64,000 bases of DNA from a virus (IMGVR_UViG_3300045988_171964); one strand, 5' to 3'; shown: positions 4,967 to 56,700, numbered from the stretch's first letter. Program-made: numbers and translations. The notes: generated by a model not told the origin, from the letters alone.

Positions 4967-5260
4967 ATAGAATTTTTATTCTTCTAATGTTTTGTCAGAT
5001 ATATTTTATAAGTTAAACGATTATTTTTTACTTATCGAAAATCGCTTAGTTTCCTTCGTTGTGAAACGCGGGGTTCTAATTTCTTCATTAATTCTAATGT
5101 GTGTGTAAAGAATAGATTCTTCTAATGTTTTATCACAATATGCTAAACGTATTTAGTTACAATTATTTTATTCAAAATTATGAGTTGTTAAAGTTTATCT
5201 TGGTTCCTTCGTTGTGAAACGCGGGAGCTTTTTATTCTTCGTTAATTAGTTCTCATATTT
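4967..5260. repeat. two ~145-bp direct repeat units in the non-coding region next to the terminase 3' end
   Basis: AATAGA..TTCTTCTAATGTTTT occurs at 4967 and 5111. TTCCTTCGTTGTGAAACGCGGG occurs at 5051 and 5204. Confidence 0.75.
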
Positions 5261-5325
5261 GAACTTAGTTTATGGTTATAGTAAGAGGGGCGGCTGTCGC
5301 GTTGACATCCGCCCCTCATTCCTAA

Positions 5326-5355
5326 TTCAACATTCAACATTCAGCATTCAACATT
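5326..5355. repeat. Motif-B right arm only (B2)
   Basis: TTCAACATTCAACATTCAGCATTCAACATT, preceded by a GC hairpin GAGGGGCGG...CCGCCCCTC at 5284-5317. Confidence 0.8.
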
Positions 5356-5358
5356 TAG

Positions 5359-19600: not shown

Positions 19601-19907
19601 GGCGCTGGTCAATTACGACAGCAACTATTCGGGAGGAAACTCAGCAAGAAGGGCATTTGATAGCGGCAACGTGGGTGATGTTCTTGCAGCAGGCACGCAA
19701 GCAGGCAATGGTAATCTTTCGTCTGGCGCGTCAGCGGCAGGCGACCTGATTGCAGCCAGCGCAGCAAGCAATGCGGCGCTCCTGCAAGCTGTGAATGCGC
19801 TCATTCAGCGCCTCAATCAGCCTATCAACGCCCAGATTAACATGTATGGTCGTGACGGACTGCATGATAGCCTGAATAAGGCTAATCGGTTTATGAAGAA
19901 TAAATAG
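13689..19907 (+). CDS. tail tape measure protein
   Basis: 2072 aa with long coiled-coil stretches. A TP901-type core-like region (YQGAKLGMGKYGVEGMKQFVAAADQINVAIGEEMGEEALPALSKMVETMGL) and central hydrophobic segments. Confidence 0.85.
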   Translation: MAKNKTEAIITLNGQQPLQVLKQLQEAAAGISEQIDAAQAKLKNLKPNTDPYKALDATIKDLKKQYDLLASAQIKDISANERLQSVVDQLSNTSLRNLRRALGDGKRQLEGLSEAELDQANAIRSMMKEVGDQVRLLEGKYVKIEKGLKNISIQSDQWLSKAITQQRDLVASLEKTDASYLKNHATLKQLEREEDRRNGKLTTPEAMTVVQDRTSTASELRRAKTSITQARDNVDTSDTAQIKAYNEALAKIEERLDAVSGKAQKTAIGWQKMRQVLSNPGKASGEDIKQTMDAIQQKIQQLPAGSKAVSDLRRQYAQLEQTMKGTRLSQAQLNDIVARSKTGKANINELRQAYKQLEEELNQLNTKSKEFNEKQKELKDLKKNIDNATGAISQQSKSWQTALKNLTAYVGLFQVFNAIKDTVTSAIKKNFEYSSSLTDIRKVSGLTMQDVNKLSEELAKIDTRTSVDGLAQLAYQGAKLGMGKYGVEGMKQFVAAADQINVAIGEEMGEEALPALSKMVETMGLIPKMGIEKAMLATGSAMFKLSSTSTSTSTNIVEFAKRLTGVSRTAGITTDQLLALGSASDSLFLMPEVSATAMSKFIVALQKNHNLIEKDLGIPDGTIKRMYAAGNAMDAIVMVLEKMRDKGNMNALGGIFKDLGSNGQRLVTAMVTMSKNVDVLKDHLYESKEAFEEATAVTSEYTMQQQSAAGILDRANNLWEKAFINPDGVESVKSMAQAWYDMSQMILQSPIFKNTLQAAMWSVITACKVFVTLLPLIANYVAALGIYKAVSFLWELGKAIKAAAAAQTLFNSAAKVNPYVAIASAIVTAVGVVWSFVEADREAAAAEAEAARKANAWKDKLKEAQSQTDTLTRKLHSYKTTLEALNVSQNARNTQIARFNRDFRQYISKLGIEIKSVSDLKKHYSELAQEIQRATYYRLREEAKQSVMPSYQMDRLNAANRIKKELNNLGLFAGGFTQKNVMDMFNKGAGAGWIWQKIIEANTKDAKQGSFRFNMKTGNYTYTDNSGKTVKGNPTGYKGLLSSLVHFQNATKRETSKDKEINDYFNQVVNLDGYTPWVEDEPGTLENEAPDNDAIRAAKQEARDQQRSWREELKQKQDEANAIMDNVRNFYERQINEKLSQAVSLGMDKTEQDLFVEPVKKRMDEALSQVRLAIAGQANTWEDFKKTMDNDLIEKTDETGVNLSKNLLTSITQNNIAALRTKMAQLGNSLNRPMNSITAEIFAKATKNQQDRVKLEAQQAEARRKVAQEHNYMGAVQQNMYDDFNQMGYATPTDFEAQDKEAFDRRKAHIISMYEQARKQIANLYTVDVSNKEGRGLLMQVLFGDDPYALGARIQSVLGDNAEDWRVFYNKLIQYSDEYTEAQKKTYDQAKKIAEQMWKVNQRNLANQETLRKMQQESALFGKRTNMWSNLGLGDLTADPEVELMKMKMQMAEDYYAFVFKNSRNQQLIDEADKARQEAELAYVNQMATAMKNRLSQMQQLVQPIETFGAEVGKAFAEMRNDVSSAQEAIKNALKSMLESWGNMALNDVNTQMWKAINDAGAKRAKKKAQPGIDAARANANANAVKEDFSHLGTKANPMYVRLVDEGASYLTQQPQSNFENMTPQQPALGWNPDGSPINPNSPAIVPPYAPPATPEQANKQAEGNGAPHAWAHRNRDNANAFYQDAATQTGAAAADAIAGGGSWSDVAAGIGGSFIGGVMNTEFKTGGGKSKEDKEKAEQLKKEKKHQKELSKEVKKGNKEREKVTTQGVKNITDVTDAGNKEQTEGTKIALNTGMAMTETALTTNLAKTQANNEAVIESDADRTRAGMTFSIAGAIGKCFDFLGPIAGPIAAAGVMATLMGLLQWALNSAFSGGKKKSNTNTTNTKLVTGMLTYDSGNVQDLKPFVADNGEVYWAKEDDGKQMQGVKMLTSPTATTVNGQPSLVAEKGPEIVIGRETTHAMMMNNPALLKALVNYDSNYSGGNSARRAFDSGNVGDVLAAGTQAGNGNLSSGASAAGDLIAASAASNAALLQAVNALIQRLNQPINAQINMYGRDGLHDSLNKANRFMKNK

Positions 19908-20140: not shown

Positions 20141-20640
20141 CATTTTGGTCTCAAAAGCATATCTTGGTCTCATTTTTCGTCGGTTTTACTACCTATATAT
20201 AAAATTTTCCGTGTATTTTTTCTTTTCCCTAAAATCAAAATCCCCTAACCTCAAACTAGGAGTTAGTAGCATTAACGGCTATGCCGTAAACTTCAGACAA
20301 TAAGGTAGTTATGGGGATATAGGGGAGTGGCAGCTAGCGAGAGAAATGCGTGATTTTCTACATATATTCTACATATTTCTGAAATATTTTGTATCTCCTG
20401 CGTACATCTGTTTATAGAAAATTATATAAAAATGAGACCAAGATATAGTAAGTTGCTGAAAAATAAGCAGATAGTAAAAAATCAGTGTGGGCTAGCAGTG
20501 GGACAATGGTGTGGCAGCAGGGGGACAATATACGCCGTTTTAGCAATTAGGGGACTTTAACATTTCTGCTAATAAAATTAAAATGAGACCAGAATCGGCA
20601 AAATGGGACCAGATTTCGCTTCCTGGTCTCATTTTTGAAA
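20141..20640. other. putative replication origin / iteron region
   Basis: Six copies of TGGTCTCA(TTTT): forward at 20146, 20165 and 20624; reverse at 20433 and 20584, plus the variant TGGGACCA at 20604. A perfect 19-bp inverted repeat ATATCTTGGTCTCATTTTT (20159-20177 / 20429-20447) flanks ~250 bp of AT-rich DNA. No ORF. Lies just upstream of the primase-like gene. Confidence 0.5.
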
Positions 20641-20652
20641 AAACAACCTTTG

Positions 20653-20686
20653 CGTCTCCGTTCCCAGCGATTCCATCGTTGGTTCC
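20653..20686 (+). repeat. Motif-A hairpin copy A3
   Basis: CGTCTCCGTTCCCAGCGATTCCATCGTTGGTTCC, followed by C8 at 20685-20692. Confidence 0.85.
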
Positions 20687-20775
20687 CCCCCCTCTCAAAC
20701 CTATATTAAATGTTAAAAATATAACTTATTTCAAATATAATATAGCTTACCTATACTTTATTCGATTTATTTTTG

Positions 20776-20783
20776 TATCTTTG
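20776..20783 (+). promoter_or_regulatory. -7 box TATCTTTG
   Basis: Bacteroidota-type TAnnTTTG 35 nt upstream of the ORF start at 20818. Confidence 0.45.
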
Positions 20784-20817
20784 CAGCGAAAAATGAACAA
20801 TATAATATATGTAAGGT

Positions 20818-21945
20818 ATGTTTGAGGAGATATGTTCCATCTATCGGGATGCGAAAGATGCACTCGGAAGATACGTCGATATGGAGACGGGCGAGTGCAT
20901 CACGCAGATGTCTATCCGTGAGTTCTGTCTTACGGATAGATGGAAGCCGTATGTAGAGAAGCTGAGAGCCATGCGGCAGCAGTATGGTAGCAAGGCGAAG
21001 AAGATGCCGGAGTATATCGAAACCAAGAAGATGCTTCCAGGTGCCACACTGAGCGGTCTCTTCGCTACCTACGAGGACGATAGCCTTACCCATCCCGGCC
21101 AGCGTGTGATGGTTTCCAGAAGAGAAAGCCACCTTCAGCAGCATACCGGATGGCTGGCGATAGATATTGACCTTCAGGACAACGAGGGTATTGCCGATTT
21201 CGAGAATATCCGCAGGGTGTTGGCATTTCGCCCCGAAGTAGCCCTGCTGATGCGCTCCTGCTCCGGAACTGGACTGTTTGGCTTGGTCCGTCTGGCTTAT
21301 CCAGACCATCATAAAGAGCAGTTCAAGGCATTATTGCATGAATATGCTGCAATGGGTATCATGCTCGATGGCTCCTGCGGAAACATCGGACGCGTGCGCT
21401 TTGCCTCATGGGATGATCCTGCGCATATATATATTAATGAACGCGCGATTCCATATACCAAACTGCCCGATAACGTACCTACACCAATGCCCGTGATGAA
21501 CTATGCCAACACATATTTCAGTGGCAGCCATCCGACTGGTGTTGGCTATGGAGGCAGCTATCCGCATAGCGGACAGGGCACCTACAGACGGGACACACCG
21601 GAAATCATCTATCGCAAAGCTTTGCGCCTTGTTGAGAAGATAGAGGCTCAAGGCATTGATATTTGTGCCGGAAAGGATGCTAATAGCGGTTATCTGGGTT
21701 GGGTGAAATGCGGCATGTCGCTTTACCATGTGGATAGAACGGCGGGTTATGACCTATGGAGAAGAGTTTCCCGCTTCCGTCCTGCTGACTCTACCTGCGG
21801 CCACAATGAAATGGATTTCCGCAAGCGATGGAACCAGTTCGCTAATTACAACAAGATTTCTGAGGCAACTTTCTTCGACTACTGCAAGCGGTCGGGCATC
21901 TTCCTCACCAGGGAAGACTGGAAAGAGATATATCAGAATACTTAG
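20818..21945 (+). CDS. primase / replication-initiator-like protein
   Basis: WLAIDIDLQDNEG...LLMRSCSGTGLFGLVRL resembles BT4734/VirE N-terminal-type domains. GYLGWVKCGMSLYHV..GYDLWRRVSRF resembles a PriCT-type helical domain. Sits beside the iteron region. Confidence 0.5.
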   Translation: MFEEICSIYRDAKDALGRYVDMETGECITQMSIREFCLTDRWKPYVEKLRAMRQQYGSKAKKMPEYIETKKMLPGATLSGLFATYEDDSLTHPGQRVMVSRRESHLQQHTGWLAIDIDLQDNEGIADFENIRRVLAFRPEVALLMRSCSGTGLFGLVRLAYPDHHKEQFKALLHEYAAMGIMLDGSCGNIGRVRFASWDDPAHIYINERAIPYTKLPDNVPTPMPVMNYANTYFSGSHPTGVGYGGSYPHSGQGTYRRDTPEIIYRKALRLVEKIEAQGIDICAGKDANSGYLGWVKCGMSLYHVDRTAGYDLWRRVSRFRPADSTCGHNEMDFRKRWNQFANYNKISEATFFDYCKRSGIFLTREDWKEIYQNT

Positions 21946-30820: not shown

Positions 30821-31726
30821 ATGGAACTAAGACATTTACGTTCGTTTGCGTATGTGGCAGAGACGCTTTCTTTCAGCATCGCCGCCACCCGATGCTTTGT
30901 CACCCAATCCGCCATCAGTCAGCACATCAAGGCTCTGGAGGATGAACTGGGATGCAAGCTACTGATACGCACATCGCACAGCATCATGCTCACCGAGAAC
31001 GGAGAGGCACTTCTGCCACGTGCCAAGGAAATACTGAAGTTGGCGGAAGACTGCAAGGAGCATATCAATGCACTCAACAACTGCATGACCGGAGAACTGC
31101 GCATCGGTGTAGGTTCCTTTATCGCACCCTATATCCGTGTGGCTGCACTTATATTCATGGAGCGATACCCTAACGTAAGAGTGAATGCCGAATTTTCCAA
31201 GGCAACGAGCCTGAACCGCCTGTTGCGAGACCACATGCTGGATCTCGCTTTTACGATGAACGAAGCCTATACCAACGAGGGCATCGATAGCCAGCCTTGC
31301 ATCCCATTCAGTCTTTGTGCCATCATGAGAAACACACACCCTCTTGCCAGGAAAGATAAGGTAACATACTATGACCTGCTGAAGCACGGCATCATCATGC
31401 CCGATGTAGGCGAACGTGTTTTCAACACTTTTCAGCAATATTTGCAGAACGATCTCACCAAATTAAGCGTAAAGTGTATCGTCAGTGACCCAGACGAAGA
31501 CCTTGCCATCATAGAAGATACTCACCTGGTTACTTTTATGCCGAAGCTGTATCTGAAGAACCACCCTACCCTTATAGCTCGTCCTATCCATGGCATAGGA
31601 GAAGAACTGATGAGCAATGCCCACTGTATGAAGGATGTACCTATGAAGCGTTCTGCACAACTCTTCCTCGACATTATCAGGGACGAAGCCATCCCGTATA
31701 TCAAGGCTTTGGAAGAAACTATGTAG
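30821..31726 (+). CDS. LysR-family transcriptional regulator
   Basis: N-terminal HTH (LRHLRSFAYVAETLSFSIAATRCFVTQSAISQHIKALEDELGCKLLIR) and a C-terminal substrate-binding-type domain. 301 aa. Confidence 0.9.
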   Translation: MELRHLRSFAYVAETLSFSIAATRCFVTQSAISQHIKALEDELGCKLLIRTSHSIMLTENGEALLPRAKEILKLAEDCKEHINALNNCMTGELRIGVGSFIAPYIRVAALIFMERYPNVRVNAEFSKATSLNRLLRDHMLDLAFTMNEAYTNEGIDSQPCIPFSLCAIMRNTHPLARKDKVTYYDLLKHGIIMPDVGERVFNTFQQYLQNDLTKLSVKCIVSDPDEDLAIIEDTHLVTFMPKLYLKNHPTLIARPIHGIGEELMSNAHCMKDVPMKRSAQLFLDIIRDEAIPYIKALEETM

Positions 31727-32880: not shown

Positions 32881-32921
32881 TGCGGCGGTGAAGTCGTCGC
32901 TCTATTAAAACAGAAAAGACT

Positions 32922-33344
32922 ATGAATAAAAGAACAATTCCAGCCTGCATCATGGCTACGCTTGCAGTAGGTGCAACCGCCACTGCTCCCTATTATGATG
33001 TAAATATCACGCAGCAGCTCTGTGCTCCTTCATGCGTGGACGAGACTCCGGTTTTCAACCCTCAGTTCTCTGTAAAGAGTATTGACAACGTGGGTACTTC
33101 GCAATATCTCATAACCATTCACGTAGAGGGTGTTATCAGTTACGTGCCTTGCAACTGTGGCTCCTGCTGCACCCGCTCGCAGGTAGTAAGTCAGGATTTC
33201 ACCATTCCTGTTTTCTCTGCTACGGCAATCACGAACGTTACCACATCTCTTGGCAGCGTGAAAAACCGTCTTGTCAAGGTAGCCTGCTGCTCCTGCAGCA
33301 AGACTTTCGTGTGCGATGCTCCGTTAACACTCACCATCGCATGA
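32922..33344 (+). CDS. hypothetical secreted Cys-rich protein
   Basis: Signal-peptide-like N-terminus MNKRTIPACIMATLAVGATATA, followed by 10 Cys after the predicted signal peptide. Confidence 0.45.
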   Translation: MNKRTIPACIMATLAVGATATAPYYDVNITQQLCAPSCVDETPVFNPQFSVKSIDNVGTSQYLITIHVEGVISYVPCNCGSCCTRSQVVSQDFTIPVFSATAITNVTTSLGSVKNRLVKVACCSCSKTFVCDAPLTLTIA

Positions 33345-34071: not shown

Positions 34072-34626
34072 ATGGCAAAGATTCAACCTCTTGCAGATTT
34101 CATCCTCTCCTTCGAGGGAGGTTACGTCAACCACCCCAATGACAAGGGCGGTCCTACCAACATGGGCGTAACATTGAAAACCTGGCAAACCCAAGGTTAC
34201 GACAAGAACAACGATGGCCGCATAGACGCAAAGGACGTGAAGCTTATCACCAAAGCCGATGCTATCTCCATCCTTCGCCGCTGTTACTGGAACCGATGGA
34301 AAGCCGATGACATCAAAGACCAAAGCATCGCCAACATCCTGGTAGATTGGGTCTGGTCTAGCGGCACACCAGGCGTAACCCTCGTGCAAGCCATGCTTGG
34401 CGTAAGAGCCGATGGTATCGTGGGCAACAAAACCCTCAAGGCGCTCAACGCCCAGTCCCCTAAGCAGTTCTTCGACCGCATCAAGGCTCGCCGCAAGCAA
34501 TATATAGCCGGCATCATCGCCAAGCACCCTAGCCAGCAAGTCTTCGAGGCAGGTTGGCTCCGTCGCCTCAATGCGATCAATTACGGCAGTCTCATCGCCA
34601 ATGGCGGCAAGAAAATAAGTTTTTAA
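34072..34626 (+). CDS. endolysin, GH108 lysozyme domain plus PG_binding_3-type domain
   Basis: ILSFEGGYVNHPNDKGGPTNMGVT is the GH108 N-terminal signature with the catalytic Glu. ILVDWVWSSG..GIVGNKTLKAL fits the peptidoglycan-binding region. Confidence 0.9.
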   Translation: MAKIQPLADFILSFEGGYVNHPNDKGGPTNMGVTLKTWQTQGYDKNNDGRIDAKDVKLITKADAISILRRCYWNRWKADDIKDQSIANILVDWVWSSGTPGVTLVQAMLGVRADGIVGNKTLKALNAQSPKQFFDRIKARRKQYIAGIIAKHPSQQVFEAGWLRRLNAINYGSLIANGGKKISF

Positions 34627-35377: not shown

Positions 35378-36478
35378 ATGCAAGAACAAATAAATCTTAC
35401 AATTCCGAAGGGTTGGAACCAATGTACTCCCTCCCAGTTGGAAGCCCTCGCTGCCATCATGCAGGAGCAGATAGCCAAAGTAGACCGCTATCACCCCTTC
35501 GATATGCAGAAGGTGAAGATAGCCGTCTTCTTCCTTTTTGCGGGGATAAGCATCAATGCCTATCCCGACCCTCGTCTGCCCCTCAATGAGCAACATTACC
35601 TGGTAAGCATAGAGCCGCAGAAGAAGAGCCTCCTGAAGAAGCTACTCTCCCTCTGCGCCCCCGTCCCCAGCGATTCTATCGCTGGTCACCCCCAGAGTAG
35701 CCATTTCCCCCTCTACCTCTGGCAGCTCAACTATTGGCTCTCCCCGAAAGCCAAGACCGATAATAAGACCTCCCCTGAGTATATCGCTCAGGGCGCAGGT
35801 CTTCTCGATTGGCTGGATGCAGATAGCGGTAATTTTCTCACCCGCTTTCCCTATCCGATTATCGGACAGAAAGCCAAGTGGTATCGTCGTGCAAAAGCCT
35901 TTCGTGGTCCGAACCCAGACCTCGATGGTTTCTCCTGGCAGCAATACCGTTTTGCCAGTGATATGATGCAGACCTACACCAAGTTAAGCAATAACCTGGT
36001 AAAGATGAAGCAGATGAATAAGTTCACCGAGGAGCAACTCCAGACGCAAGCTCAGAGTGTCGCAAGTGCAAGAAACATGTTCCTTGCTACCATCTTTAAC
36101 ACCACCACCCAGTACGTCGATCCGACAACAGGCATCACGAAATACGATTTTCATTATGAGTCCAAGCAGTTCACCGAGAACGCAGGTTATTTCGTCAAAT
36201 ATCCGGAAGCCAACTGGCAGGTGATATTATTCTGGTGGAGTGGCATCATGCACACCCTAGCCCATCGCTATCCTCACGTATTTAAGGTGCAGAAGGTAGA
36301 TAATAAAAAGCCGCAAACCCCGATGGAAATCTACACCGCCACCACCGCCACGATGCAGAAGTATGCTGGCCTAACGGAAGATCAGGTCAATACTCAGTCC
36401 TATTCCCTCGTTCTCGAACACCTCGAAAGGTTGTCGAAAGAGAATGAGGAAATGGAAAAAATGAGGAGAAACAAATGA
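35378..36478 (+). CDS. hypothetical protein (Motif-A copy embedded in frame)
   Basis: 366-aa ORF. Its stop overlaps the ATG of the first TRD-like mini-ORF (ATGA). Confidence 0.5.
   Translation: MQEQINLTIPKGWNQCTPSQLEALAAIMQEQIAKVDRYHPFDMQKVKIAVFFLFAGISINAYPDPRLPLNEQHYLVSIEPQKKSLLKKLLSLCAPVPSDSIAGHPQSSHFPLYLWQLNYWLSPKAKTDNKTSPEYIAQGAGLLDWLDADSGNFLTRFPYPIIGQKAKWYRRAKAFRGPNPDLDGFSWQQYRFASDMMQTYTKLSNNLVKMKQMNKFTEEQLQTQAQSVASARNMFLATIFNTTTQYVDPTTGITKYDFHYESKQFTENAGYFVKYPEANWQVILFWWSGIMHTLAHRYPHVFKVQKVDNKKPQTPMEIYTATTATMQKYAGLTEDQVNTQSYSLVLEHLERLSKENEEMEKMRRNK
35651..35687 (+). repeat. Motif-A hairpin copy A6, inside a CDS
   Basis: CTCTGCGCCCCCGTCCCCAGCGATTCTATCGCTGGTC, translated as LCAPVPSDSIAGH. 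Confidence 0.85.
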
Positions 36479-36606
36479 TAGATGTAAAGGCATCTGTACA
36501 CCCTTTGAGTCATAAACAGAAATGGAAGAAATGGGCGGGGCTTTCTCCTGCACTCAGAGCCACCGATTACAAATGCCCACACTGCATAAGGATAGAGTAT
36601 GAATAA
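36475..36606 (+). CDS. C5-MTase TRD-like mini-ORF a (43 aa)
   Basis: MIDVKASVHPLSHKQKWKKWAGLSPALRATDYKCPHCIRIEYE. SPALRATDYK resembles the (S/T)PTLRAxDYK TRD block. Ends in the TATGAATAA junction. Confidence 0.5.
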   Translation: MIDVKASVHPLSHKQKWKKWAGLSPALRATDYKCPHCIRIEYE

Positions 36607-36730
36607 CCATCGTTTTTATCAATATCCACGAGGCGAGAATAAGGGCGGTATTCTAAATACGGATCTCTGCCCTACCATTACCATCAATGCGTGGGAGTCG
36701 AACGTTTTTCTGATAAAGAAATATGAATAA
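36599..36730 (+). CDS. C5-MTase TRD-like mini-ORF b (43 aa)
   Basis: MNNHRFYQYPRGENKGGILNTDLCPTITINAWESNVFLIKKYE, with a CPTIT...W..N TRD-type block. TATGAATAA junctions at both ends. Confidence 0.5.
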   Translation: MNNHRFYQYPRGENKGGILNTDLCPTITINAWESNVFLIKKYE

Positions 36731-37049
36731 TAACACCCAACCTCAATACAAGCGAGGAACGATTATCAAGAACGGAAAGAGATATGGCTTTTATCCTGAT
36801 GGTTCTCTCTATCGGATATACTCCACCTCCGACCGTCCGTTTCTTGAAATCGTGGATATAGAAGGTAAGACCTTCCTACGCATTCGTCAGGCAACAGAGC
36901 AAGGTTATACCGATTGTCCTGCACCAGGTGCAGCCGATTTAAGCTACCCCTCTTCTGCCCTAAGACGTAGCCGCACCGTTGGAGGGGGTAAATTGGTAAA
37001 TGCACTCACGGCTGCCAGTAGCAATCCGTTTGTGTTTGTAGAATTATAA
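36723..37049 (+). CDS. C5-MTase TRD-like ORF c (108 aa)
   Basis: IRQATEQGYTDCPAPGAADLSYPSSALRRSRTVGGGKLVNALTAASSNPFVF resembles the ATKxGY..GD..L.P.S.TRRGRVG...TLT TRD type. Confidence 0.55.
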   Translation: MNNNTQPQYKRGTIIKNGKRYGFYPDGSLYRIYSTSDRPFLEIVDIEGKTFLRIRQATEQGYTDCPAPGAADLSYPSSALRRSRTVGGGKLVNALTAASSNPFVFVEL

Positions 37050-37078
37050 ACAAAAAAAGATTTATAGAGCAAAACAAA

Positions 37079-38380
37079 ATGATAACAAAGTTTAATTTCA
37101 AGGATAAGACTATTAAGTCTTATGCCATCCGAAAGCTGACACCCTTCGAGTGTTTCCGACTGATGGGTGTTCGTGATAACGTGATACAAACCATGCAGAG
37201 TACCAATGCCCAGGCAGCCGAACGCATCGCCAACTACAAGGGCAAGGGCAAACCTGAAGATATGGCAGTATCAGCCAGTCAGCAATACAAGCAGGCAGGT
37301 AACTCCATCGTGGTAGATGTGCTCGCAGCCATCTATCAGCAACTCTGGTATCCGAAAGAGCCAAAGCGTGAGGCACAGACCTCATTCTTTGCCGATTTCT
37401 TCCCAGAAGACCAACTCCCTACCTATCCAGTAGATAAGAACCATGGTGAGAAACTTATCCTCACCACCTTTTCCGGTTACGACTCGCAGTTGATGGCAGC
37501 CGATGTTCTCGCCCAGCAGCACCCTGATTTCCGCTGGACGTGCGTAGGCTGGAGCGATATAGATAAGTATGCCTGTCAGATGCACAACCTCATCTTTCCG
37601 CAGTTTGCTGACAAAGCCTTGGGCGATATAACCAAAATCGACTGGCAACAGGTAAAGAATAATGTGGGGGGGCAAGAAATCGACCTTTTTACCTATTCTT
37701 CACCTTGTCAGGATATATCGCAAGCCGGCAAGCAGATGGGGTTGAAGGAAGGTTCCGATACCCGCTCGGCATTATTGTGGCGAGTAGCCGATGCCGTGGA
37801 AGTGTTGCGCCCGAAGTATCTGCTTCAGGAGAACGTGGCAGCCCTGGTAAGCGAGAAGTTTCTGCCCGATTTTCAGAAGTGGCTTGATAAGCTCTCATCT
37901 CTCGGTTACGTAAGCCGATGGGCAAGACTCAATGCCAAAGACTATGGTGTTCCGCAGAACCGCGACCGAGTTTTCTGCCTCTCAATGAGAAAAGATGTAG
38001 CCTTCGATTACCAGTTTCCCGACCCTATTCCGCTGAAGAGAAAGTTGGAAGATGTGTTGCAGGAGGAAGTAGATACAAGGTTCTTCTTGAAAGATGAAGC
38101 CGTCAGCAAGTTCCTCCAGGCAAACGATAAAGACACCTGCGTCTTCCATCAGTTCGATATAGAGCCGAGCCACGAGAACGCCATGGCATTGAAAGCCATC
38201 CTCACCCTTTATCTGGAAGAGACGCATCTTTGGCATTGCACTCCCCAAGAACTGCAGGAACAGCTTTCTTCCGCTCACGAGGACATCATTATGCCGCTGT
38301 TCAATGACTGGAAAGAGAACGGCAAGTTCGCAAATCCTAAGTTGGAAAGTATGTATCATCATTTTTTGGAGAAGAAATGA
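37079..38380 (+). CDS. DNA (cytosine-5) methyltransferase catalytic core, circularly permuted (IX-X then I-VIII), no recognisable TRD
   Basis: Motifs in order: IX AIRKLTPFECFRLMGV; X YKQAGNSIVVDV; I TTFSGYDSQ; IV YSSPCQDISQAGK; VI LLQENV; VIII PQNRDRVF. Contains G7 at 37666-37672. Confidence 0.9.
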   Translation: MITKFNFKDKTIKSYAIRKLTPFECFRLMGVRDNVIQTMQSTNAQAAERIANYKGKGKPEDMAVSASQQYKQAGNSIVVDVLAAIYQQLWYPKEPKREAQTSFFADFFPEDQLPTYPVDKNHGEKLILTTFSGYDSQLMAADVLAQQHPDFRWTCVGWSDIDKYACQMHNLIFPQFADKALGDITKIDWQQVKNNVGGQEIDLFTYSSPCQDISQAGKQMGLKEGSDTRSALLWRVADAVEVLRPKYLLQENVAALVSEKFLPDFQKWLDKLSSLGYVSRWARLNAKDYGVPQNRDRVFCLSMRKDVAFDYQFPDPIPLKRKLEDVLQEEVDTRFFLKDEAVSKFLQANDKDTCVFHQFDIEPSHENAMALKAILTLYLEETHLWHCTPQELQEQLSSAHEDIIMPLFNDWKENGKFANPKLESMYHHFLEKK

Positions 38381-38568
38381 GCAAGAAAAAGATTCGCAAT
38401 AAGATACCGAAATGCACTCAGTGCTCTGCATCTCTTAATTTCGTTGGTAATGAAGAGTATGGAGATAATGGTTATAAGTATCTTTATCATTGTCCGAACT
38501 GCAGTGCAGACTTAGAGGTTTTTGAACCTTTGGAAGAAGATAAACCCCAATATCCATTTTGGCAATGA
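38377..38568 (+). CDS. zinc-ribbon protein (63 aa)
   Basis: CTQC...CPNC. ATGA overlaps with both neighbours. Confidence 0.5.
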   Translation: MSKKKIRNKIPKCTQCSASLNFVGNEEYGDNGYKYLYHCPNCSADLEVFEPLEEDKPQYPFWQ

Positions 38569-38714
38569 TAAAGGTAAGTTCTTTAAACCCGGACCCTATC
38601 TATCTTGTAGTAAGCAGATGTTTGAAATCACAGTATCAGCGAAACTCGATAGTAAACTTTCTGAAGGCTACAGGCGGTAGGGCTGCAACGGCTGTAATAG
38701 TAAGATATGATTAA
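38565..38714 (+). CDS. TRD-like mini-ORF j (49 aa)
   Basis: MIKVSSLNPDPIYLVVSRCLKSQYQRNSIVNFLKATGGRAATAVIVRYD. Weak TRD likeness. Ends in the TATGATTAA junction. Confidence 0.4.
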   Translation: MIKVSSLNPDPIYLVVSRCLKSQYQRNSIVNFLKATGGRAATAVIVRYD

Positions 38715-38880
38715 AGGTTTATTTTCATTAAGCATACATCATAAAATGCCGATAAACGTAGATAACGATTGCTTTCACTGTCCGGTCTGCACTCATTATC
38801 ATAAGCTGGCATTATCCGATATTCTTCCTGGTTTAAAACGTAGGTGTAATCGTGAGGGTGCTGTAATTGTAGAAATATAG
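38707..38880 (+). CDS. mini-ORF k (57 aa), Cys/His-rich
   Basis: ..DNDCFHCPVCTHYHKL..KRRCNREG... Starts in the junction motif. Confidence 0.35.
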   Translation: MIKGLFSLSIHHKMPINVDNDCFHCPVCTHYHKLALSDILPGLKRRCNREGAVIVEI

Positions 38881-38884
38881 AACT

Positions 38885-39034
38885 ATGAATAGTAATCGCC
38901 CTATCATCCTCGGCTCGTATAGCCCATCTCAAAACGGCATAATCGTGCATCCTAAAGGTATTGCCCTATGCCTTTGTGGAGGGGGCAAAGGGCACGACGT
39001 AGATAAACCGAAAATATTATTAGAGTATGAATAA
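38885..39034 (+). CDS. C5-MTase TRD-like mini-ORF d (49 aa)
   Basis: MNSNRPIILGSYSPSQNGIIVHPKGIALCLCGGGKGHDVDKPKILLEYE, of the SQ..RVY..GI.PTL.A.GGG type. Confidence 0.5.
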   Translation: MNSNRPIILGSYSPSQNGIIVHPKGIALCLCGGGKGHDVDKPKILLEYE

Positions 39035-39128
39035 GGTTATAATAGATAAAGGCAGCATTCCTCCTTCTGAAGAGAAAGAGGATGATCCTAATGATATGCC
39101 ACCCCTCGTATTGATAGAATATGATTAA
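39027..39128 (+). CDS. mini-ORF e (33 aa), acidic linker-like
   Basis: MNKVIIDKGSIPPSEEKEDDPNDMPPLVLIEYD. Junction motifs at both ends. Confidence 0.3.
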   Translation: MNKVIIDKGSIPPSEEKEDDPNDMPPLVLIEYD

Positions 39129-39297
39129 GATATTAGCCATTCACGAGGCGAGAACAGAGCACGCAAAGGAAGTACGCAAGCAGACTGGCACCAACGATTA
39201 TCGGGATAAAGCCATCTTCTTTCGTGACAGCTTCCTGATGCAGTGCATCGGTACCTTCCACACGAAGGATAATCTCCTTGCCTTCAGATATGAATAA
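39121..39297 (+). CDS. C5-MTase TRD-like mini-ORF f (58 aa)
   Basis: ..RTEHAKEVRKQTG..FRDSFLMQCIGTFHTKDNLLAFRYE. Paralog of mini-ORF h. Confidence 0.5.
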   Translation: MIKILAIHEARTEHAKEVRKQTGTNDYRDKAIFFRDSFLMQCIGTFHTKDNLLAFRYE

Positions 39298-39306
39298 AGA
39301 AAAGTT

Positions 39307-39471
39307 ATGAAAGAAATACATCCGATAGTAGTAGGCTTGCTGAATATGCCTCCGTTTGATAAGCGTTTTCAGCTGGCAAAACGAGTGTATGCAGTAAAAG
39401 GCATAGCCCCTGCTTGTAATACATGTGGAGGGGGTGGACTTCAGCCCAAAATATTTGTGGAATATGATTAG
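39307..39471 (+). CDS. C5-MTase TRD-like mini-ORF g (54 aa)
   Basis: ..FQLAKRVYAVKGIAPACNTCGGGGLQPKIFVEYD. Paralog of mini-ORF d. Confidence 0.5.
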   Translation: MKEIHPIVVGLLNMPPFDKRFQLAKRVYAVKGIAPACNTCGGGGLQPKIFVEYD

Positions 39472-39646
39472 GCAAGCCATCATTACTCACTATCGAACCG
39501 AGGAAGCGAAGGCATATCGCAAGATACACGGCGACAGAGGCGGTTGCCGTTATAAGGATAAATACCATCGTCCAAGCCCATCACCCTGGAGTAACTGCAT
39601 TTCCACCGTAACAAAAGATAATCTTTTATGGCAGCAATACGAATAA
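39464..39646 (+). CDS. C5-MTase TRD-like mini-ORF h (60 aa)
   Basis: ..RTEEAKAYRKIHGDRGG...SNCISTVTKDNLLWQQYE. Confidence 0.5.
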   Translation: MIRQAIITHYRTEEAKAYRKIHGDRGGCRYKDKYHRPSPSPWSNCISTVTKDNLLWQQYE

Positions 39647-39786
39647 GAACCTGCGCAAGCAGAGGCAGAGCAGATGGAGATTGGTATTCCAATCCTCACT
39701 CCCAAAGGTTAGAAATCGGGGGGGGTATCAGTAACGCCATCTCCTCCATCGCCAAGGATTTCATGATCATTATCAATTATGAATAA
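39628..39786 (+). pseudogene. degenerate C5-MTase motif IX-X remnant (52-aa ORF i)
   Basis: MAAIRIRTCASRGRADGDWYSNPHSQRLEIGGGISNAISSIAKDF. IRIR and SQR..IG.GIS...IAK echo motifs IX and X, but motif IX is only legible (SRWRLVF) in another frame. Contains G8 at 39718-39725. Confidence 0.35.
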
Positions 39787-39795
39787 AAAGAGGAG

Positions 39796-39826
39796 CCACC
39801 GTTCCCAGCGATTCTATCGCTGGTCC
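39796..39826 (+). repeat. Motif-A hairpin copy A7
   Basis: CCACCGTTCCCAGCGATTCTATCGCTGGTCC. Confidence 0.85.
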
Positions 39827-39836
39827 CCTCCCCTCT

Positions 39837-39872
39837 TTGTCCCCACCAAAACCACAAAAACCCCTAACTTTA
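39837..39872 (+). promoter_or_regulatory. phage promoter, TTGTCCCCA-N19-TAACTTTA
   Basis: TTG at 39837 and a variant -7 box at 39865-39872, in the same register. Confidence 0.5.
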
Positions 39873-39966
39873 CACTCAGAAATAGAGAAAAAAGCGGGCG
39901 CGCGTATATCGCCACCCTTCTCTCTTTCCATCACATTCAGGATAACATAAAAAAAGAAACGCAAAA

Positions 39967-50729: not shown

Positions 50730-53700
50730 ATGGCAACAGAAGCAAAAAATACAAATTATTGGATCTCGAGCACTGCGCTCTCTATCCAGCTAAATTCGAT
50801 GGGAGAGCCTGACTACATCCAGTGTAGTGTAGTATCGGGCGCTTCGGTCCTCTGCTATATGAGCGATGTGCCAGGCTTGGGCTATGATGCCGGTCACAAC
50901 TATCAGCGCTGGACGCTTGCTGCCTATCCTTCTATCTTCCCCGATAGCAAACGGAAGTATGTGTATATCGCCATTCCACGACAGTCTACCACCGATAATA
51001 ACCAGGCTACCGTCGTGTTCCCTGGTGAGAAGATAGATATATATGGTAAGACTATTCCATCTTCCGGAACTGAAGGTGTGCAGATAGGTAACGAGGCTTA
51101 TTACTATATCTTTACAGGCGGTATCATATCTGCTGTAAAGACCGATGCCGACAATACCAGAAAGCGAGAATGGGAACAGCATTTTGATTGCGGTAAACTG
51201 GCTACCGACGAGGCGATAGCCAGCGGCGGTGAAGGCGAATGGTGGCGGTATAATTCCGTATCAGATACCATCACCTTCCTCAAGGAGATTCTGAAGGCAA
51301 ACTTTAATGAATTGTCGGCAAAGGTAGCTCGCGTAACCAGTCTTTTCCTGGGTGGGCATGAACTGAGGGGCGTTGCTGACAGTAACGGCACCCTGGAAAT
51401 AAGCGATGATACCGTAGTTACCCCTCAGTATCTCGGTCAGTTTGGGGTGAAGCATTTCCTTGCCAAGGATAAGGATGATACGGCCCATGGCACTATCACT
51501 TGGGAGAAGGTTCAGAAGTTCTTGCAGGGGTTGCATGTCGGTAACCGCAACAATGAGAACGGAGGTTCCTGGACTCCCGATGCAGAAGGTCGTTCACACC
51601 TCATAACAGATTACTTGGAGGTAAGAATGAAGGCTATCTTCGAGGAGCTGGTCATCAATAAAACATCCACCATCGGTGGTAAGGAGATAATCTCTCCTGC
51701 TGGCGGTGTGGTGGCTCATAAGGTAGAAGAGGTTACTGTGACATATAATAATGTGTCACAGAAGGCTTATCGTTGCTACTTCCTCGCAGAGCAGGAAGGC
51801 GATTCTGTAGATAATGATTTCGCTGTTAACGATCAGGTGCGCTCGGAATCATTCAATGTACGCAAGGGCACTTACCACAAAGTTGGCAATCACTTTTACT
51901 GGCGATTGGTAATCGGTCGTGATGAAGACCCTGTAGAGCTGGAAGGAAAGAAATATCATTATATCGACCTCTCTGATACCGATTGCGCTACGGCAAGCGA
52001 TGTTCCTGCTAAAGGTGATGTGCTCAACCAGTGCGGTAATAGAACCGATGTAGAACGTCAGAACTGCCTTATCTTCTCGGCGGTAGATACCTATTCGCCA
52101 TCCATCAGCCTCTATCACGGCATCAATAGCTATTCCTTTGCCAATAGGGAGTATGTGGAATATGGTGTGAATAAGCAGACTAACAGGGCTTTCTTCCATG
52201 TCTACGGAGATATGTACTTCGGAGACCGACCTACTAGTGCCAATAACTACGAGGGTGATTCCTATGTCAAGTTTGATAGCGAGACGAAGAAAGTAACCAT
52301 CAAGGGAGACTTGGATATTAAGTCCACCTATGATGGCAAAACCTTGGATAAGTACATCACCGAGAAGAGCTTGGATAAGAATGCCGTTGAGACCATTATC
52401 AATAAATCGCAGACGATTATCGACCTTCAAAACCAGATAGACGGAGCTATTGAGACTTGGTTCTATGACGGCGTTCCTACTTTGAAGAATGCTCCAGCCA
52501 TCAGTTGGAAGACCGACAATGATAAGAAAACCCACTTGGGAGACCTCTACTATGACAACAAGACGGGCAAGGCATACCGCTTTGCCAAGGATGGCTCTAC
52601 CTATGAGTGGATTATCATCACAGATACGGAGCTGACCAAGGCACTCAAAGATTCAAGCCAAGCACTCAAAGATGCAGCCGCTGCGGATAAGAAGGCTAAT
52701 GGAGCGCAAGCTACCGCCAACACCAAGAGACGCATCTTCGGCTCTCAGCCAGTTCCACCATACGATGTGAACGATATGTGGGTGAACGCAACCTATCCGA
52801 ACGATGGTAGCACTTACAAGAACGAAATCTTGAAGTGTTCCACCGCCAAGGCAGAAGGCGAAAAGTTCGATATTGCCGATTGGAAATTGGCTAGCAAGTA
52901 TACCGATGACACGAAGGCAGAGGAAGCCAAGAAAGCTGCTGAGAAGGCGCAAGAAGAGATTAAGACGACACAGAGCAACTTGAACGCCCTCGGAACGACT
53001 GTTACCGAAAACAAAAAGACGTTCGACAGCTACGTCAAAGATGGCTACCTAGAGCCTTCTGAGATTGCTGCAATGTCGCAGGATTCCAAGCGACTTGAAG
53101 ATGCTTTCGCAGCTGCCGAGAAGTCGTACAATGAAGTGAAGGGAGCAGAGGTGTTAAAGAGTACAAAAGAACTCACCGACCTTAATACTGCTTTCACTAC
53201 TCTCTCTACTGCCAAGACGGAACTCGTTACGTATCTCTCAGATATATCTACAAATTACAATAAGGCTGATACTACCGGCAAGGCTGCCATCGTATCTGCT
53301 GTCGGAACGAAGTTTACCAACTTCCAAAGCGCATATTCTGCCTTCTATGACAAGCTGGGTTTGGCAAACGCATATATCACTAGCAAGATATATGGTGACT
53401 TGAAGCAGAATATCACAGACCTCGCAGGTTACAAGTATCTCAAGGATGCGCTCGGTCAGACTACATATGTTGACGGTGGTCTTGTAATGACAACGCTCCT
53501 TGCGCTGAGAGACGGAGACGGAAACGTTCAGAGCGGTATCAACGGAGCAATAGACCCGAATAGAGGAAAGAAGAGTATCGCAACATGGTGGGGCGGTCAG
53601 ATGGTGGATAAGGACTATAATAGCGGAAATCTTACCCCTGCAACCTCCCTCATCCGCTTCGATGGCTCGGGTTATCTTGCCAATGGTGCTATCTGGTGGG

Positions 53701-56700
53701 ATGTGAGCGGAAAGGTTCACGCAGACCCGACATCGTTTATCATCAGTGAGAAGAATCTTGGCGCATACCTCACCTTCTTCGAGCCGACTTGGAAGGAAGG
53801 AAGTGCAGGAACGAGCGTTGCTGACCTTGTGTCTTTGAAGCCAAACGCTCCATTCTCCAAACTTGGCGTATCGGGCGATGCTACATTCGAAGGCGCAATC
53901 TCCTTCCATGGCATTAAGCTCACGTATGATTCCAAAAACAAGGCTATCAAAATTGATGGCAATCTCTATACCACAGGTGGTATCACGGCATACGGAGCAG
54001 GAGCATCTACCACGGGTGGTGGCGGCTTGAACGGCAGTGTGAAGAGTTATTCAAATGCCTTGAAGCTTACATCAGAATCGCTGTCTGAGATAGCTTCTGC
54101 CTACTCCATCAAGGCTCTTGATTCTCGTATCTCCAGCTTGGAAGGTGGTAGTGCTACTGCTATTTCTGTCAGCGGTAGCGGTAATGCGGTTACGTCTGTC
54201 ACCAAGGATGGTACTACTATCAGCGTAGTTAAAGGTAGTACGTTCTTAACTAGTCATCAGTCACTTGATGGTTACGTTAATGCAATATCTGTAAGTGGAA
54301 GTGGGAATGCTATCACGTCTGTATCTAAAAGCGGAAAGGGTATTACATTTACTAAAGGTGCTACATTTTTAACTTCTCACCAAAGTCTTGCTAACTATTA
54401 TACCAAAAGTAGTGTAGATTCACTTCTTAGTGGTAAGTCGGCAACTAGTCATACACATAGTGTTAAGATTAACGGTGTTACTAAAACTATTGCAGCTACT
54501 GGTGGAACTGCTGTAGATTTAGGAACTTATCTTACTAGTCATCAATCTCTTAATGGGTATGCTACGCAATCTTGGGTTAAAAGTCAAGGTTATCTTACTA
54601 CCCATCAAGATGTTAGTATTCTTAACATGGCTAATGATAGATATTATTATAAAGATAATTATGGTATAAATATGCGAAATTCTGATATTATTGGAGTTAA
54701 TAGTATTTATACTAAAGATTTATCTGATGACCCTTCAGAAGCTATTCTATTTTGTAGAAGTAACGGTAACTATGATGGTATTCGTGCAGCAAATGGAGTA
54801 TTATATTTTAGCAATAATGTAGTTAGAACTACTAGAAAATATGATGCTGAATATGAAGTTTATCATAAAGGTAATCTTACTAAACTTAGTCAACTTACTA
54901 ATGACAAGAACTTTGTTACTGGTTCTGTAAGTGGTCAAACTATTACTATCAATGGTGTTTCTACTACTTGGCAAAATACTTGGAGAGGAATTACTGATAG
55001 TTATAGTGGAACTTCTACTGGTACTAGTCTTAGTCAAAAAGGTGCAAATAGTTTATATAATGCTTTGCATAATGGATATGCTAGCAGCGCAGGTAATGCA
55101 GATACTGTAGATGGTTATCATGCTAATGGTAGCAATGTTGCACCCTATGGGCATATACCTACTATAGAAAGCGATGGAGTAATGGAAGTAGGTAAATATA
55201 TTGACTTTCATAATGATAATAGCGGTAAACATGATTTTTCTACTAGATTACTAACTACTGGTAATTATGGAAATTCAGTTAATCTTCCATCAGTAGGTGG
55301 TACATTAGCGTTAACTTCTGACAATGTAGCTTCTGCAACAAAACTTGCGGCAGCAAGAACGATATGGGGTCAAAGTTTTGATGGTACTGGAAATGTTAAT
55401 GGAACTATATACATAAATAATAGTGATTCTGAAAACGGAGCTATAATATTAAATAATAATGTAAATGCTAATGCTCGTATATCAGCTATAAAAGACCAAG
55501 TAGTATTTAATACTGGTGCTGCTATTCGTTTTGGAGCAACCAACTGGGAGTATAGTGATTGGGCTGGTCTTAAATATGATACTGTTGCTAATGCTATATA
55601 TTTAGGTATAGCCGATGGAACTGTATTTAATTATTATTCTAATAAAAGAAGTAATGGTACACTTAAATTTCCAGGTATTACAACTATAACTCCTGATAGT
55701 GGAGCTAGAATTGGAGGTAGCGGTGGTGATTTATATTTAGGTAATGGTAATAATACTAATTGGGTGAAAGTTCAAGACATGTGTAGTCAAGTAAATAGTA
55801 GTTATTGGAACATAACACAATTCGGTAGTGCTACGTTTAAAAGTCTTACTGTTAATGATGTTATTAGTTGTGATAGTATTAGTGTTAGTAAAAATGCCGT
55901 TATTGCTGGTAATTTATCAGTTAACGGTTTAATAAATAATAAAGGTATATTACCTACAAATTATGAAGTTAATAATAAAGGAATGGGTTGTTATGTTTCA
56001 GCTGATGCTTTATGTTCTGGAATTACTGCTATTACTGATAGTATACCAGTTGATAATCTTTCTATAGTTTATAGTAATGATAATGGTACTAATTGGACTA
56101 ATTATAATATATCAAATGATACTAAATTTAAGGCGTATGCGAATGTTGCAGGTGTTGATGGTTTTACCTTAGGTGGCAATGTTATCACTGGTAATACTGA
56201 TGCTGAAAAGTTAGCTCAAATAAAAAAGAACGAATTAATGTTTTCGTTTGAAATTCCTAATTCTTGTTATTCTCAAGTATATTTTGCTTGTGTTGATATG
56301 GGACAAGGTGTTGGTGTTACTTGTACTGTAGAATATTTAAATAGTAAAGGTGTTATAGTCAATACTTATATTAAATATATGACCGGACGGAATCAGTTTA
56401 ATTATATAAATTTATCTAATGGTAATACGGCTTTTGGTGTAGGAAATGATGATAGAAGATATATTCGTTTTAAATTTAAACATGACCAAAATACTACTGC
56501 ATTACGAAATGCTTCAATAAATAGAATACGAATATTTGCTTTTACTAAGTATTCATTTCCTACTGATAGATTTATGGGGCATACAGGTCATATATATAAC
56601 TTTGATTATAATTTGAATACTTACTTCCCTAATGGCATTCTTGCTAAAGGTGGAGTTACAGCTTATCAATCTTCAGACATCCGCCTGAAGCAGGATTTGC

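Follow-up and report, generated by a model that had tools for sequence, protein, structure and literature searches.

The locus described here lies on a 64,000-nucleotide (nt) stretch of viral DNA, IMGVR_UViG_3300045988_171964, which as a whole is referred to below as the window. It contains a gene for a C5-cytosine DNA methyltransferase (C5-MTase) core and 12 small open reading frames (mini-ORFs) of 33 to 108 amino acids (aa), all on the plus strand. Three mini-ORFs (A to C) are located upstream of the core and nine (a Zn-ribbon–like ORF and D to K) downstream; consecutive mini-ORFs overlap by 8, 4, or 19 nt or are separated by 4 to 9 nt, and a recurrent 9-mer is found at many of the junctions. 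Comparisons with known enzymes identify most of the mini-ORFs as genes for single target recognition domains (TRDs), the part that is absent from the core itself. The features of the locus are listed below, together with the ratio of nonsynonymous to synonymous differences (pN/pS) and independent E values (iE) of matches to covalent enzymes, that is, to C5-MTases that carry their TRDs on the catalytic chain.

36475..36606, plus strand: predicted TRD mini-gene A, 43 aa, ends IEYE; pN/pS 0.23; phmmer match to the variable region of covalent C5-MTase P0163 (iE 6e-9).
36599..36730, plus strand: predicted TRD mini-gene B, 43 aa, ends KKYE, starts in junction 36598; pN/pS 0.25; match to P0103 (iE 2e-6).
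36723..37049, plus strand: mini-gene C, 108 aa, ends FVFVEL; pN/pS 0.12; residues 52 to 101 match the TRD region of P0123 (iE 3e-11).
37079..38380, plus strand: circularly permuted, TRD-less C5-MTase core, 433 aa, assigned from Pfam PF00145, alignment, AlphaFold2 (AF2), and Foldseek.
38377..38568, plus strand: Zn-ribbon–like mini-ORF, 63 aa, family 24; weak zinc-ribbon Pfam matches below the cutoff; pN/pS 0.40, based on few substitutions.
38565..38714, plus strand: mini-gene D, 49 aa, ends VRYD, family 1; pN/pS 0.21.
38707..38880, plus strand: mini-gene E, 57 aa, ends VIVEI, starts in junction 38706; pN/pS 0.20.
38885..39034, plus strand: predicted TRD mini-gene F, 49 aa, ends LLEYE; pN/pS 0.16; matches the TRD region of P0135 and P0054; 88 homologous clusters, all standalone, 36 to 83 aa.
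39027..39128, plus strand: mini-gene G, 33 aa, acidic, ends LIEYD, family 17 (18 loci); pN/pS 0.16.
39121..39297, plus strand: predicted TRD mini-gene H, 58 aa, ends AFRYE; pN/pS 0.13; residues 5 to 54 align with one TRD unit (486 to 535) of the 612-aa multi-TRD methylase P0048 (iE 3e-13).
39307..39471, plus strand: predicted TRD mini-gene I, 54 aa, ends FVEYD, starts 9 nt past the stop of H; pN/pS 0.20; match to P0112 (iE 5e-11).
39464..39646, plus strand: predicted TRD mini-gene J, 60 aa, ends WQQYE (Tyr encoded by TAC); pN/pS 0.21; 39 standalone homologues.
39628..39786, plus strand: predicted TRD mini-gene K, 52 aa, ends IINYE; pN/pS 0.10; matches TRD units of P0151, P0048, and P0149.
36598, 36722, 38706, 38884, 39026, 39120, 39289, 39463, 39638, and 39778, plus strand: ten junction 9-mers, encoding Tyr-Asp/Glu-stop with the next ATG embedded in an 8-nt overlap.

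The ATG of mini-gene A overlaps the stop codon of an upstream 366-aa ORF in the tetranucleotide ATGA. The same overlap is found on both sides of the Zn-ribbon–like ORF, which lies between the core and D, contains two CxxC pairs, and is accessory (present in 12 of the 81 loci considered below). Altogether, five junctions of the window are in the −8 register, three in the −4 register (366-aa ORF/A, core/Zn-ribbon, and Zn-ribbon/D), and one each in the −19, +4, and +9 registers, the −19 case being that of K, whose ATG sits 19 nt inside J. A 29-nt gap separates the core from mini-gene C, the second half of which is TRD-like. When the mini-ORFs were scanned against Pfam, no matches were obtained except the weak Zn-ribbon ones.

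The core gave a PF00145 match of 1.6e-50, which was split in two stretches. The motifs that define a C5-MTase, I, IV (PCQ), VI (ENV), VIII (QxRxR), IX, and X, are all present: FSGYDS, SSPCQDIS, QENV, and QNRDR were read in the ORF, then RKLTPFECFRLMG and GNSIVV, which correspond to motifs IX and X and are located at the N terminus. The catalytic motifs are invariant in 19 homologues. The resulting order is a hairpin, motifs IX and X, motifs I to VIII, the sequence FDIEP, and a C-terminal three-helix bundle; no TRD is present on the chain between motifs VIII and IX. The N terminus, MITKFNFKDKTIKSYAIRKLTP, places ~16 aa (fewer than 20) ahead of motif IX, a segment whose counterpart in covalent relatives is the hairpin after the last TRD. 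The bundle (residues 365 to 431, after motif VIII and FDIEP) is unique to the core; covalent relatives P0127 and P0149, whose sequences were read, end shortly after motif X without it.

To compare the core with known enzymes, we used a de-permuted construct in which its two halves were swapped and a mini-ORF was inserted between them. The construct was colinear with M.MpeI (4dkj) and M.HhaI through motif VIII, the variable region, and motifs IX and X. The AF2 model of the core had a predicted local distance difference test score (pLDDT) of 76 overall and of ~90 to 95 in the C-terminal tail (residues 365 to 431), and the best Foldseek matches of the model were M.MpeI and M.HhaI. Because of the colinear alignment and these structural matches, we consider the core to be circularly permuted in the variable region. 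The permutation point lies exactly within this region, with all catalytic motifs kept and no TRD.

The nature of the mini-ORFs was assessed with a profile of the J/H family, which was searched against 1.84 billion representative proteins. It matched 296 proteins, many of which are standalone and ~60 aa long; among the matches listed, 45 are 230 to 626 aa. Ten of the long matches were scanned against Pfam, and PF00145 was found in 10 of 10, with one to three tandem copies of the module between motifs VIII and IX. Direct reading of P0048, P0072, and P0149 revealed multi-TRD enzymes whose units end in ...KDNLL-(I/V)-E-(P/K) and follow one another without spacers. Eight of the 11 modules (A, B, the second half of C, F, H, I, J, and K) match the TRD regions of covalent enzymes, and the limits of the mini-ORFs coincide, within ~2 residues, with the limits of the ..h-h-E-P units (h, hydrophobic) in these enzymes. 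Residues characteristic of functional TRDs, for example T-x-x-KDNLL and GGG loops, are also retained in the modules, and J was modeled by AF2 (pLDDT 81) as a compact beta-alpha-beta-beta unit that begins and ends with a strand. Since the mini-ORFs are homologous to tandem covalent TRDs and share their limits, we identify them as the separately encoded TRD units of a phage-type multispecific methylase. The tandem units of multispecific MTases lie in one polypeptide; here, the homologous units are separate ORFs.

Module G (PPSEEKEDDPNDMPP) is very acidic and has the standard hydrophobic-Glu-Tyr-Asp tail and no TRD-like body. It might be a blank or a competitor for a docking site, or something else entirely. 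Proteins P0054, P0065, and P0070 (278 to 395 aa) consist of tandem TRD units followed by motifs IX and X, without motifs I to VIII. These may be truncated gene calls or, by analogy with M.AquI, beta subunits from other multispecific enzymes that are split, and could represent evolutionary intermediates.

The 9-mer at the junctions was checked in the sequence. TATGAATAA is found at 36598, 36722, 39026, 39289, and 39778; TATGATTAA at 38706 and 39120; TATGATTAG at 39463; and TATGAATAG at 38884. The copy at 39638, TACGAATAA, is a near-copy of the consensus TATGAWTAR. A first-pass annotation of the window had reported a 10-fold recurrence of the string at these positions, and both the recurrence and the coordinates proved correct. 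The anatomy it had described was found as well: Tyr-Glu/Asp-stop terminates 8 mini-ORFs of the locus, the embedded ATG is the start of 7, and the ATG at 39290 opens only 6 codons. The ORF that starts at 39779, which had been considered spurious, is indeed noncoding, with substitutions distributed 81/100/85 over the three codon positions and indels that are often not multiples of 3.

We calculated the frequency of TATGAWTAR relative to dinucleotide-preserving shuffles (n = 100). There are 10 exact matches in the window, on the plus strand only, compared to a shuffle mean of 3.81 for both strands; 10 matches were reached in 0 of 100 shuffles. Nine of the 10 are within 36598–39786 (3.2 kb), where ~0.1 would be expected on one strand according to the shuffle mean scaled to the locus (Poisson P of ~1e-15; ~90-fold local enrichment). 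The string is thus concentrated at the locus and is not equally frequent elsewhere. The tenth copy, at 32921, is merely the start of an unrelated 140-aa ORF (32922–33344), and no ORF ends there. Positive gaps of tens to hundreds of bases separate most other genes of the window. Just one further 8-nt stop/start overlap is present, at 20818 (AGG TAT GTT TGA, with the ATG within the Tyr codon), and it joins unrelated ORFs of 80 aa (20583–20825) and 375 aa (20818–21945).

Relatives of the locus were collected as 80 IMG/VR loci with a core 67 to 97% identical to that of the window, which gives 81 loci with the window included. The same design was observed in 78 of the 80 relatives (79 of 81 with the window), with the core and arrays co-located on one strand. 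Loci have between 0 and 14 modules each (median, 10), and the 777 module ORFs of the 81 loci fall into 18 families. Arrays differ in a mosaic fashion, in both module order and content, even where the cores are >93% identical, and the same ORF limits are kept in relatives whose cores are only ~70% identical. Several module families, including family 1 (mini-gene D), occur on either side of the core. The same architecture was found in a 146-kb contig, and the design is widespread in human gut viromes, where a single protein cluster can comprise as many as 1,331 sequences. The phage is an uncultivated member of Caudoviricetes with a genome of ~100 to 105 kb from the human gut, and it probably infects Bacteroidota. 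Its only named relatives are "MAG TPA Caudoviricetes sp." and one Prevotella metagenome-assembled genome bin, and its portal is distantly similar to that of Polaribacter phage Leef_1. No DNA match to 36400–39900 was found in GenBank phages, and almost nothing was matched by PHROGs among neighboring structural genes. A crAss-like affiliation was considered and dropped, since it could not be demonstrated from PHROG matches.

Across the 81 loci, the most common module junction is the −8 overlap (353 cases), followed by −19 (43), −14 (14), and small gaps; the registers in relatives are −8, −19, −14, −4, +3, +4, +6, +9, and +12. The junction is more degenerate in relatives than in the window and can be generalized as TATG[A/C]NT in combination with TAA, TAG, or TGA. 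In the −8 class, all 353 junctions use TAT for Tyr, the residue before the stop is D (202), E (128), or A (22), and the stop codon is TAA (217), TGA (88), or TAG (48). As can be seen from the sequence logo, position 5 of the junction is essentially free. The upstream part of the logo is codon-periodic, with T in the middle of three codons for hydrophobic residues (positions −11, −8, and −5) followed by GAR (Glu) and TAT, and nothing is conserved downstream of the junction. Junction-type TATG sites open an ORF of ≥25 codons in 483 of 548 cases (88%). An alternative start at TTG in Phe-acidic-stop tails was also considered and rejected, since an ORF was opened at only 17 of 58 such sites.

The aromatic residue at −2 is not limited to the −8 class. 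It is kept in 43 of 43 junctions of the −19 class, where all 19 Tyr residues are encoded by the minor codon TAC and the others are Phe, as well as in 13 of 14 junctions of the −14 class and 153 of 235 gapped junctions. Covalent TRDs have no aromatic-acidic tail and end in h-h-E-P. Since the aromatic residue persists where no ATG is embedded, the tail appears to be selected in its own right. The 9-mer is therefore a superposition of a protein tail (h-h-h-E-Y/F-acidic-COOH), the next ATG, and a stop codon: The wobble and stop positions vary and the upstream conservation is codon-periodic, so the constraint acts on the tail, start, and stop rather than on a DNA site.

The first-pass annotation had offered two accounts of the string: selection, for example for termination-reinitiation coupling, or the footprint of the process that multiplies and inserts modules, either as a cassette boundary or as a recombination site. 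Comparison of relatives bears on the second. In pairwise comparisons with close relatives, every indel boundary falls at a module boundary. Module B is absent in locus L008, with breaks from junction to junction; the Zn-ribbon–like ORF, D, and E are lost between the core ATGA and the ATG of F in L006, L008, L011, and L019; other modules take the place of G in L011 and L019, where the breaks fall at junctions; and L011, L012, and L019 lack I, for which junctions 39289 and 39463 are the breakpoints. We also carried out a change-point analysis of all pairs of junctions with homology on one flank and unrelated sequence on the other. In these pairs, which are not independent, the left-flank homology ends at +5 to +10 in 72% of pairs, homology begins at −3 to 0 in 50% of cases, and change points almost never fall inside the upstream module.

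Clustering of gain, loss, and replacement breakpoints at the junction would also be observed if the 9-mer were primarily a DNA recombination site or cassette-insertion footprint whose coding content is secondary. The presence of some module families on both sides of the core agrees with such a scheme, as does P0036, a 65-aa chimera of the N-terminal half of J and the C-terminal half of K, which indicates that recombination takes place inside homologous TRD units too. We nevertheless consider a dedicated site of this kind unlikely. Degeneracy falls exactly at the wobble and stop positions, which include three different stop codons, the conservation is only upstream, and the aromatic tail persists without the 9-mer. 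A recombination cassette would have an extended site with arms and a cognate recombinase; the copies here are not flanked by inverted or extended repeats, and no recombinase or integrase domain was found among the 12 larger neighboring ORFs scanned against Pfam. The copies are all direct, so a recombinase could only delete. Clean breakpoints, in turn, can result from selection for in-register exchange or from microhomology. Thus, of the earlier accounts, selection of the junction and its role as a cassette boundary, with module gain and loss ending exactly at it, both held, while the recombination site as such did not. The greater degeneracy of the junction in relatives, and a TRD-less, circularly permuted core accompanied by TRDs as free-standing genes, are points that go beyond the first-pass annotation.

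All 12 mini-ORFs exhibited an excess of third-position changes and a pN/pS of 0.10 to 0.40 compared to equal-length orthologues, in pairs that all include the window sequence and are not independent, a limit that counts against the interpretation developed below. In a word-based search of 5.8 billion proteins, homologues of J and F were found only as standalone proteins of 36 to 86 aa, some of them in clusters of >100 members on contigs of ~100 kb. No in-frame sense junction was found in the 81 loci; relatives with sense codons at these positions would have spoken against the first-pass annotation. We conclude with high confidence that the string represents a stop/start overlap, maintained by selection, of TRD mini-genes that are translated separately. 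The opposite view, that the mini-ORFs are decaying fragments of a former covalent multi-TRD gene and the string a chance or inherited remnant, could explain why individual modules are broken in some relatives. It is hardly credible given the pN/pS of every ORF, the constant ORF limits at ~70% core identity, the 353 junctions in an identical register, and the ~90-fold local enrichment of the motif; random pseudogenization had likewise been argued against in the first-pass annotation. Reassignment of a stop codon was also rejected, since TAA, TAG, and TGA are each used at junctions and no stop of the standard code interrupts the large genes.

Rare ORFs that span two modules were candidates for in-frame relatives and were rejected as such: They are products of frameshifts inside the upstream module, with the junction intact, and at least one occurred at a poly-G/GGG-codon stretch. 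P0270 (found on four contigs), P0040, P0043, and loci L010, L014, L018, and L050 are natural frameshifts of this kind that fuse the core to F or one module to the next. In each, the junction nucleotides are intact and the last 10 to 20 residues of the upstream part are out of frame. A run of eight G residues in K (39718–39725), which encodes Gly-Gly-Gly, has a length of 7, 8, or 9 in relatives, and the K ORF is broken or truncated with G7 (L024) or G9 (L005). The core contains a G7 run (37666–37672) that is G8 in one relative. The window has five runs of exactly eight G or C residues (four besides that of K) and two 7-base runs (C7 at 8246 and the G7 of the core); homopolymer runs were also noted at 9458, 11051, 20685, and 22122. 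Variation in the length of G runs could be due to phase variation or to sequencing or assembly error.

The intact stops could, in principle, be bypassed by programmed recoding, with a +1 shift or readthrough at each Tyr-Glu-stop yielding one covalent multi-TRD chain. Covalent relatives carry exactly these units in one chain, all −8 junctions would need the same +1 shift, and a stop codon in the ribosomal A site is a classic stimulator of +1 shifting, as in prfB. However, no −8 junction has lost its embedded ATG, which a shift site would not require, and at 88% of sites a module ORF starts from it. There is no tRNA re-pairing for GAA to AAT or TAT to ATG, position 5 and the stop codon vary freely, and the registers are too varied for any single recoding event. 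Moreover, the chain so produced would stay unconnected to the core, since the upstream array ends 29 nt before the core ATG, and the core already holds motifs IX and X together with I to VIII on one chain. Recoding is therefore very improbable in our view.

Gene pairs coupled by termination-reinitiation are co-directional and have an overlap or gap of about −8 to +6 nt, as is the case in the window and in relatives. The −8 overlap is the third most common in prokaryotes, and overlaps from −8 to +6 are indicative of termination-reinitiation and enriched among genes for subunits of heteromeric complexes (PMC10666635). The junction of the window belongs to the known −8 coupling class (ATGNNTRR; PMC6728339, PMC10666635). 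It differs from known cases in that the overlap is used serially, up to ~10 times, with a fixed Tyr-acidic pair before the stop, in a phage (probably of Bacteroidota) that has most of its other genes spaced apart. Termination-reinitiation coupling at the junctions is plausible, and the string probably acts as a signal for it. A scan for promoters and terminators performed no better than shuffles.

These observations suggest how the locus could work. We slightly favor a reading in which the TRD mini-proteins, made by coupled translation, dock noncovalently on the TRD-less core to produce a multispecific anti-restriction methylase. The overlaps would couple translation by termination-reinitiation, so that the whole mini-protein array is expressed with the core. 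The docking place of each mini-protein would lie between the core termini, next to the N-terminal hairpin and the helix of motif IX, and the mini-protein might be held there by the C-terminal helical bundle and the Tyr-acidic tail. Because the core termini lie exactly at the place where TRD arrays are inserted in covalent enzymes, docking would rebuild the small domain and lead to an enzyme pool with ~10 target specificities that together would protect phage DNA from host restriction. Each cassette would bring its own start and supply the previous stop in register, so any junction-to-junction exchange would give a working array, and this may be the reason why relatives differ by clean cassette changes. 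As for the more general proposal, that a TRD-less core is programmed in trans, in a Type I–like manner, by ~10 free-standing TRD mini-proteins of 45 to 60 aa and that the 8-nt connector permits cassettes to be added, dropped, or swapped, we regard the arguments for and against as evenly balanced.

The step from covalent to free TRDs may be a modest one. An internal TRD of a covalent enzyme is tethered only to other TRDs and would have to dock noncovalently, so that only the tether would be lost. The aromatic-acidic tail and the C-terminal bundle, both of which are absent from covalent relatives, are candidate docking elements. C5-MTases tolerate splits in the variable region, as revealed by M.AquI, M.EcoHK31I, and M.SssI fragments (PMC3404938), and both natural and engineered C5-MTase permutants are known (PMC5944983).

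Besides the nonindependence of the pN/pS pairs, several points weigh against noncovalent docking. Known natural two-subunit C5-MTases, unlike the enzyme proposed here, keep the TRD covalently attached to one half. We know of no precedent for a free TRD of ~50 aa, which might bind too weakly. Modules D, E, and G and the Zn-ribbon–like ORF have no significant match to covalent TRDs, and a Foldseek search of the AF2 model of J against the Protein Data Bank returned nothing significant. The coupling of translation is deduced from overlap geometry only, and translation start signals of Bacteroidota are poorly understood. Last, loci L033 and L042 have a core (5001–6299; 69 to 71% identical) without any TRD-like mini-ORF within 5 kb on either side, and in L033, PCP replaces the PCQ of the catalytic loop. 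In these loci, the core may persist or act alone, the copies may be decaying, or the modules may be elsewhere in the genome.

Several of these points would be accommodated if the mini-proteins were made but were not specificity subunits of the core, acting instead as decoys, regulators, or small DNA binding proteins or forming an inert reservoir of TRDs, with the core inactive or in another role; the frameshifted modules common in relatives would fit as well. To this explanation we assign a minor but appreciable probability. It does not account for the co-location of the core and arrays as coupled ORFs on one strand in 79 of 81 loci, nor for a core that is cut where TRDs belong while its catalytic motifs stay invariant. 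In addition, the modules retain residues of working TRDs under purifying selection, and a silent reservoir needs no conserved starts, stops, or C-terminal tail.

The proposed docking enzyme can be compared to several known systems. Multispecific C5-MTases of Bacillus phages (M.SPRI, M.phi3TI, M.rho11sI, and M.H2I) were reportedly described by Wilke et al. in 1988 and Trautner et al. in 1996. Like the locus in the window, they combine a phage enzyme with one core and several TRD units of ~40 to 60 aa in a row, each presumably responsible for one target, and the presumed role, protection from many host restriction systems, is common to both. The TRDs of the Bacillus phage enzymes are located in one polypeptide between motifs VIII and IX, while in the window, each unit is an ORF of its own with a Tyr/Phe-acidic tail, the core is permuted, arrays are present on both sides, and modules are more numerous (median of 10, up to 14).

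M.AquI, M.EcoHK31I, and M.SssI fragments (PMC3404938) are similar in that pieces translated separately make up a C5-MTase and that it is the variable region that tolerates the cut. M.AquI consists of two pieces cut in this region, each half carrying a part of it, and the predicted TRD of M.EcoHK31I is on the larger subunit. In M.AquI-type enzymes, motifs I to VIII are on one chain and motifs IX and X on the other, while both blocks are on the 433-aa chain in the window, with all catalytic motifs together and only the TRDs detached, in many alternative copies. M.BssHII, M.Alw26I, M2.Eco31I, M.Esp3I, and M2.BsaI (PMC5944983) share with the core the placement of motifs IX and X before I to VIII and the permutation in the variable region. 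However, these enzymes keep the TRD on the chain (type H: TRD-IX-X-I-VIII), ahead of motif IX, where the core has the ~16-aa hairpin and, at its other end, a bundle that is not a TRD.

If the proposed docking takes place, the logic would be the same as that of Type I HsdS, a separate exchangeable specificity polypeptide that serves a generic methylase and is encoded by genes that recombine as cassettes. There is no homology between the proteins, and the chemistry of Type I systems is different (N6-adenine methylation, with large S subunits that have two TRDs); shuffling of hsdS proceeds by inverted repeats and recombinases. No description of free-standing TRD genes was found in full-text literature searches, the scope of which did not extend to the older papers of the Trautner laboratory. 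With specificity provided in trans, the system would be the first C5-MTase with detachable recognition subunits and would show how a phage can carry at least 10 anti-restriction specificities and exchange them quickly. It would also bear on how one catalytic domain serves many TRDs, indicating that the tether between TRDs is dispensable, and could provide a natural scaffold for programmable DNA methylation, with one core and small swappable readers. Regardless of how the mini-proteins act, the locus is a clear case of serial translational coupling, as judged from its overlaps, in a probable Bacteroidota phage.

The surroundings of the locus offer few functional assignments. The portal, putative capsid-region proteins, and most neighbors had no PHROG or Pfam match, and the phage lineage is essentially uncharacterized. 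An endolysin (Glyco_hydro_108 and PG_binding_3) is encoded at 34072–34626, ~1.9 kb upstream of the first mini-ORF, which places the methylase locus between lysis and morphogenesis genes. Two very large ORFs of 2,072 and 2,105 aa are located at 13689–19907 and 50730–57047. The window also contains a full-length LysR-type transcriptional regulator at 30821–31726 (HTH_1 and LysR_substrate, E values of 1e-21 to 1e-25), an unusual cargo for a genome that otherwise looks like that of a virulent phage.

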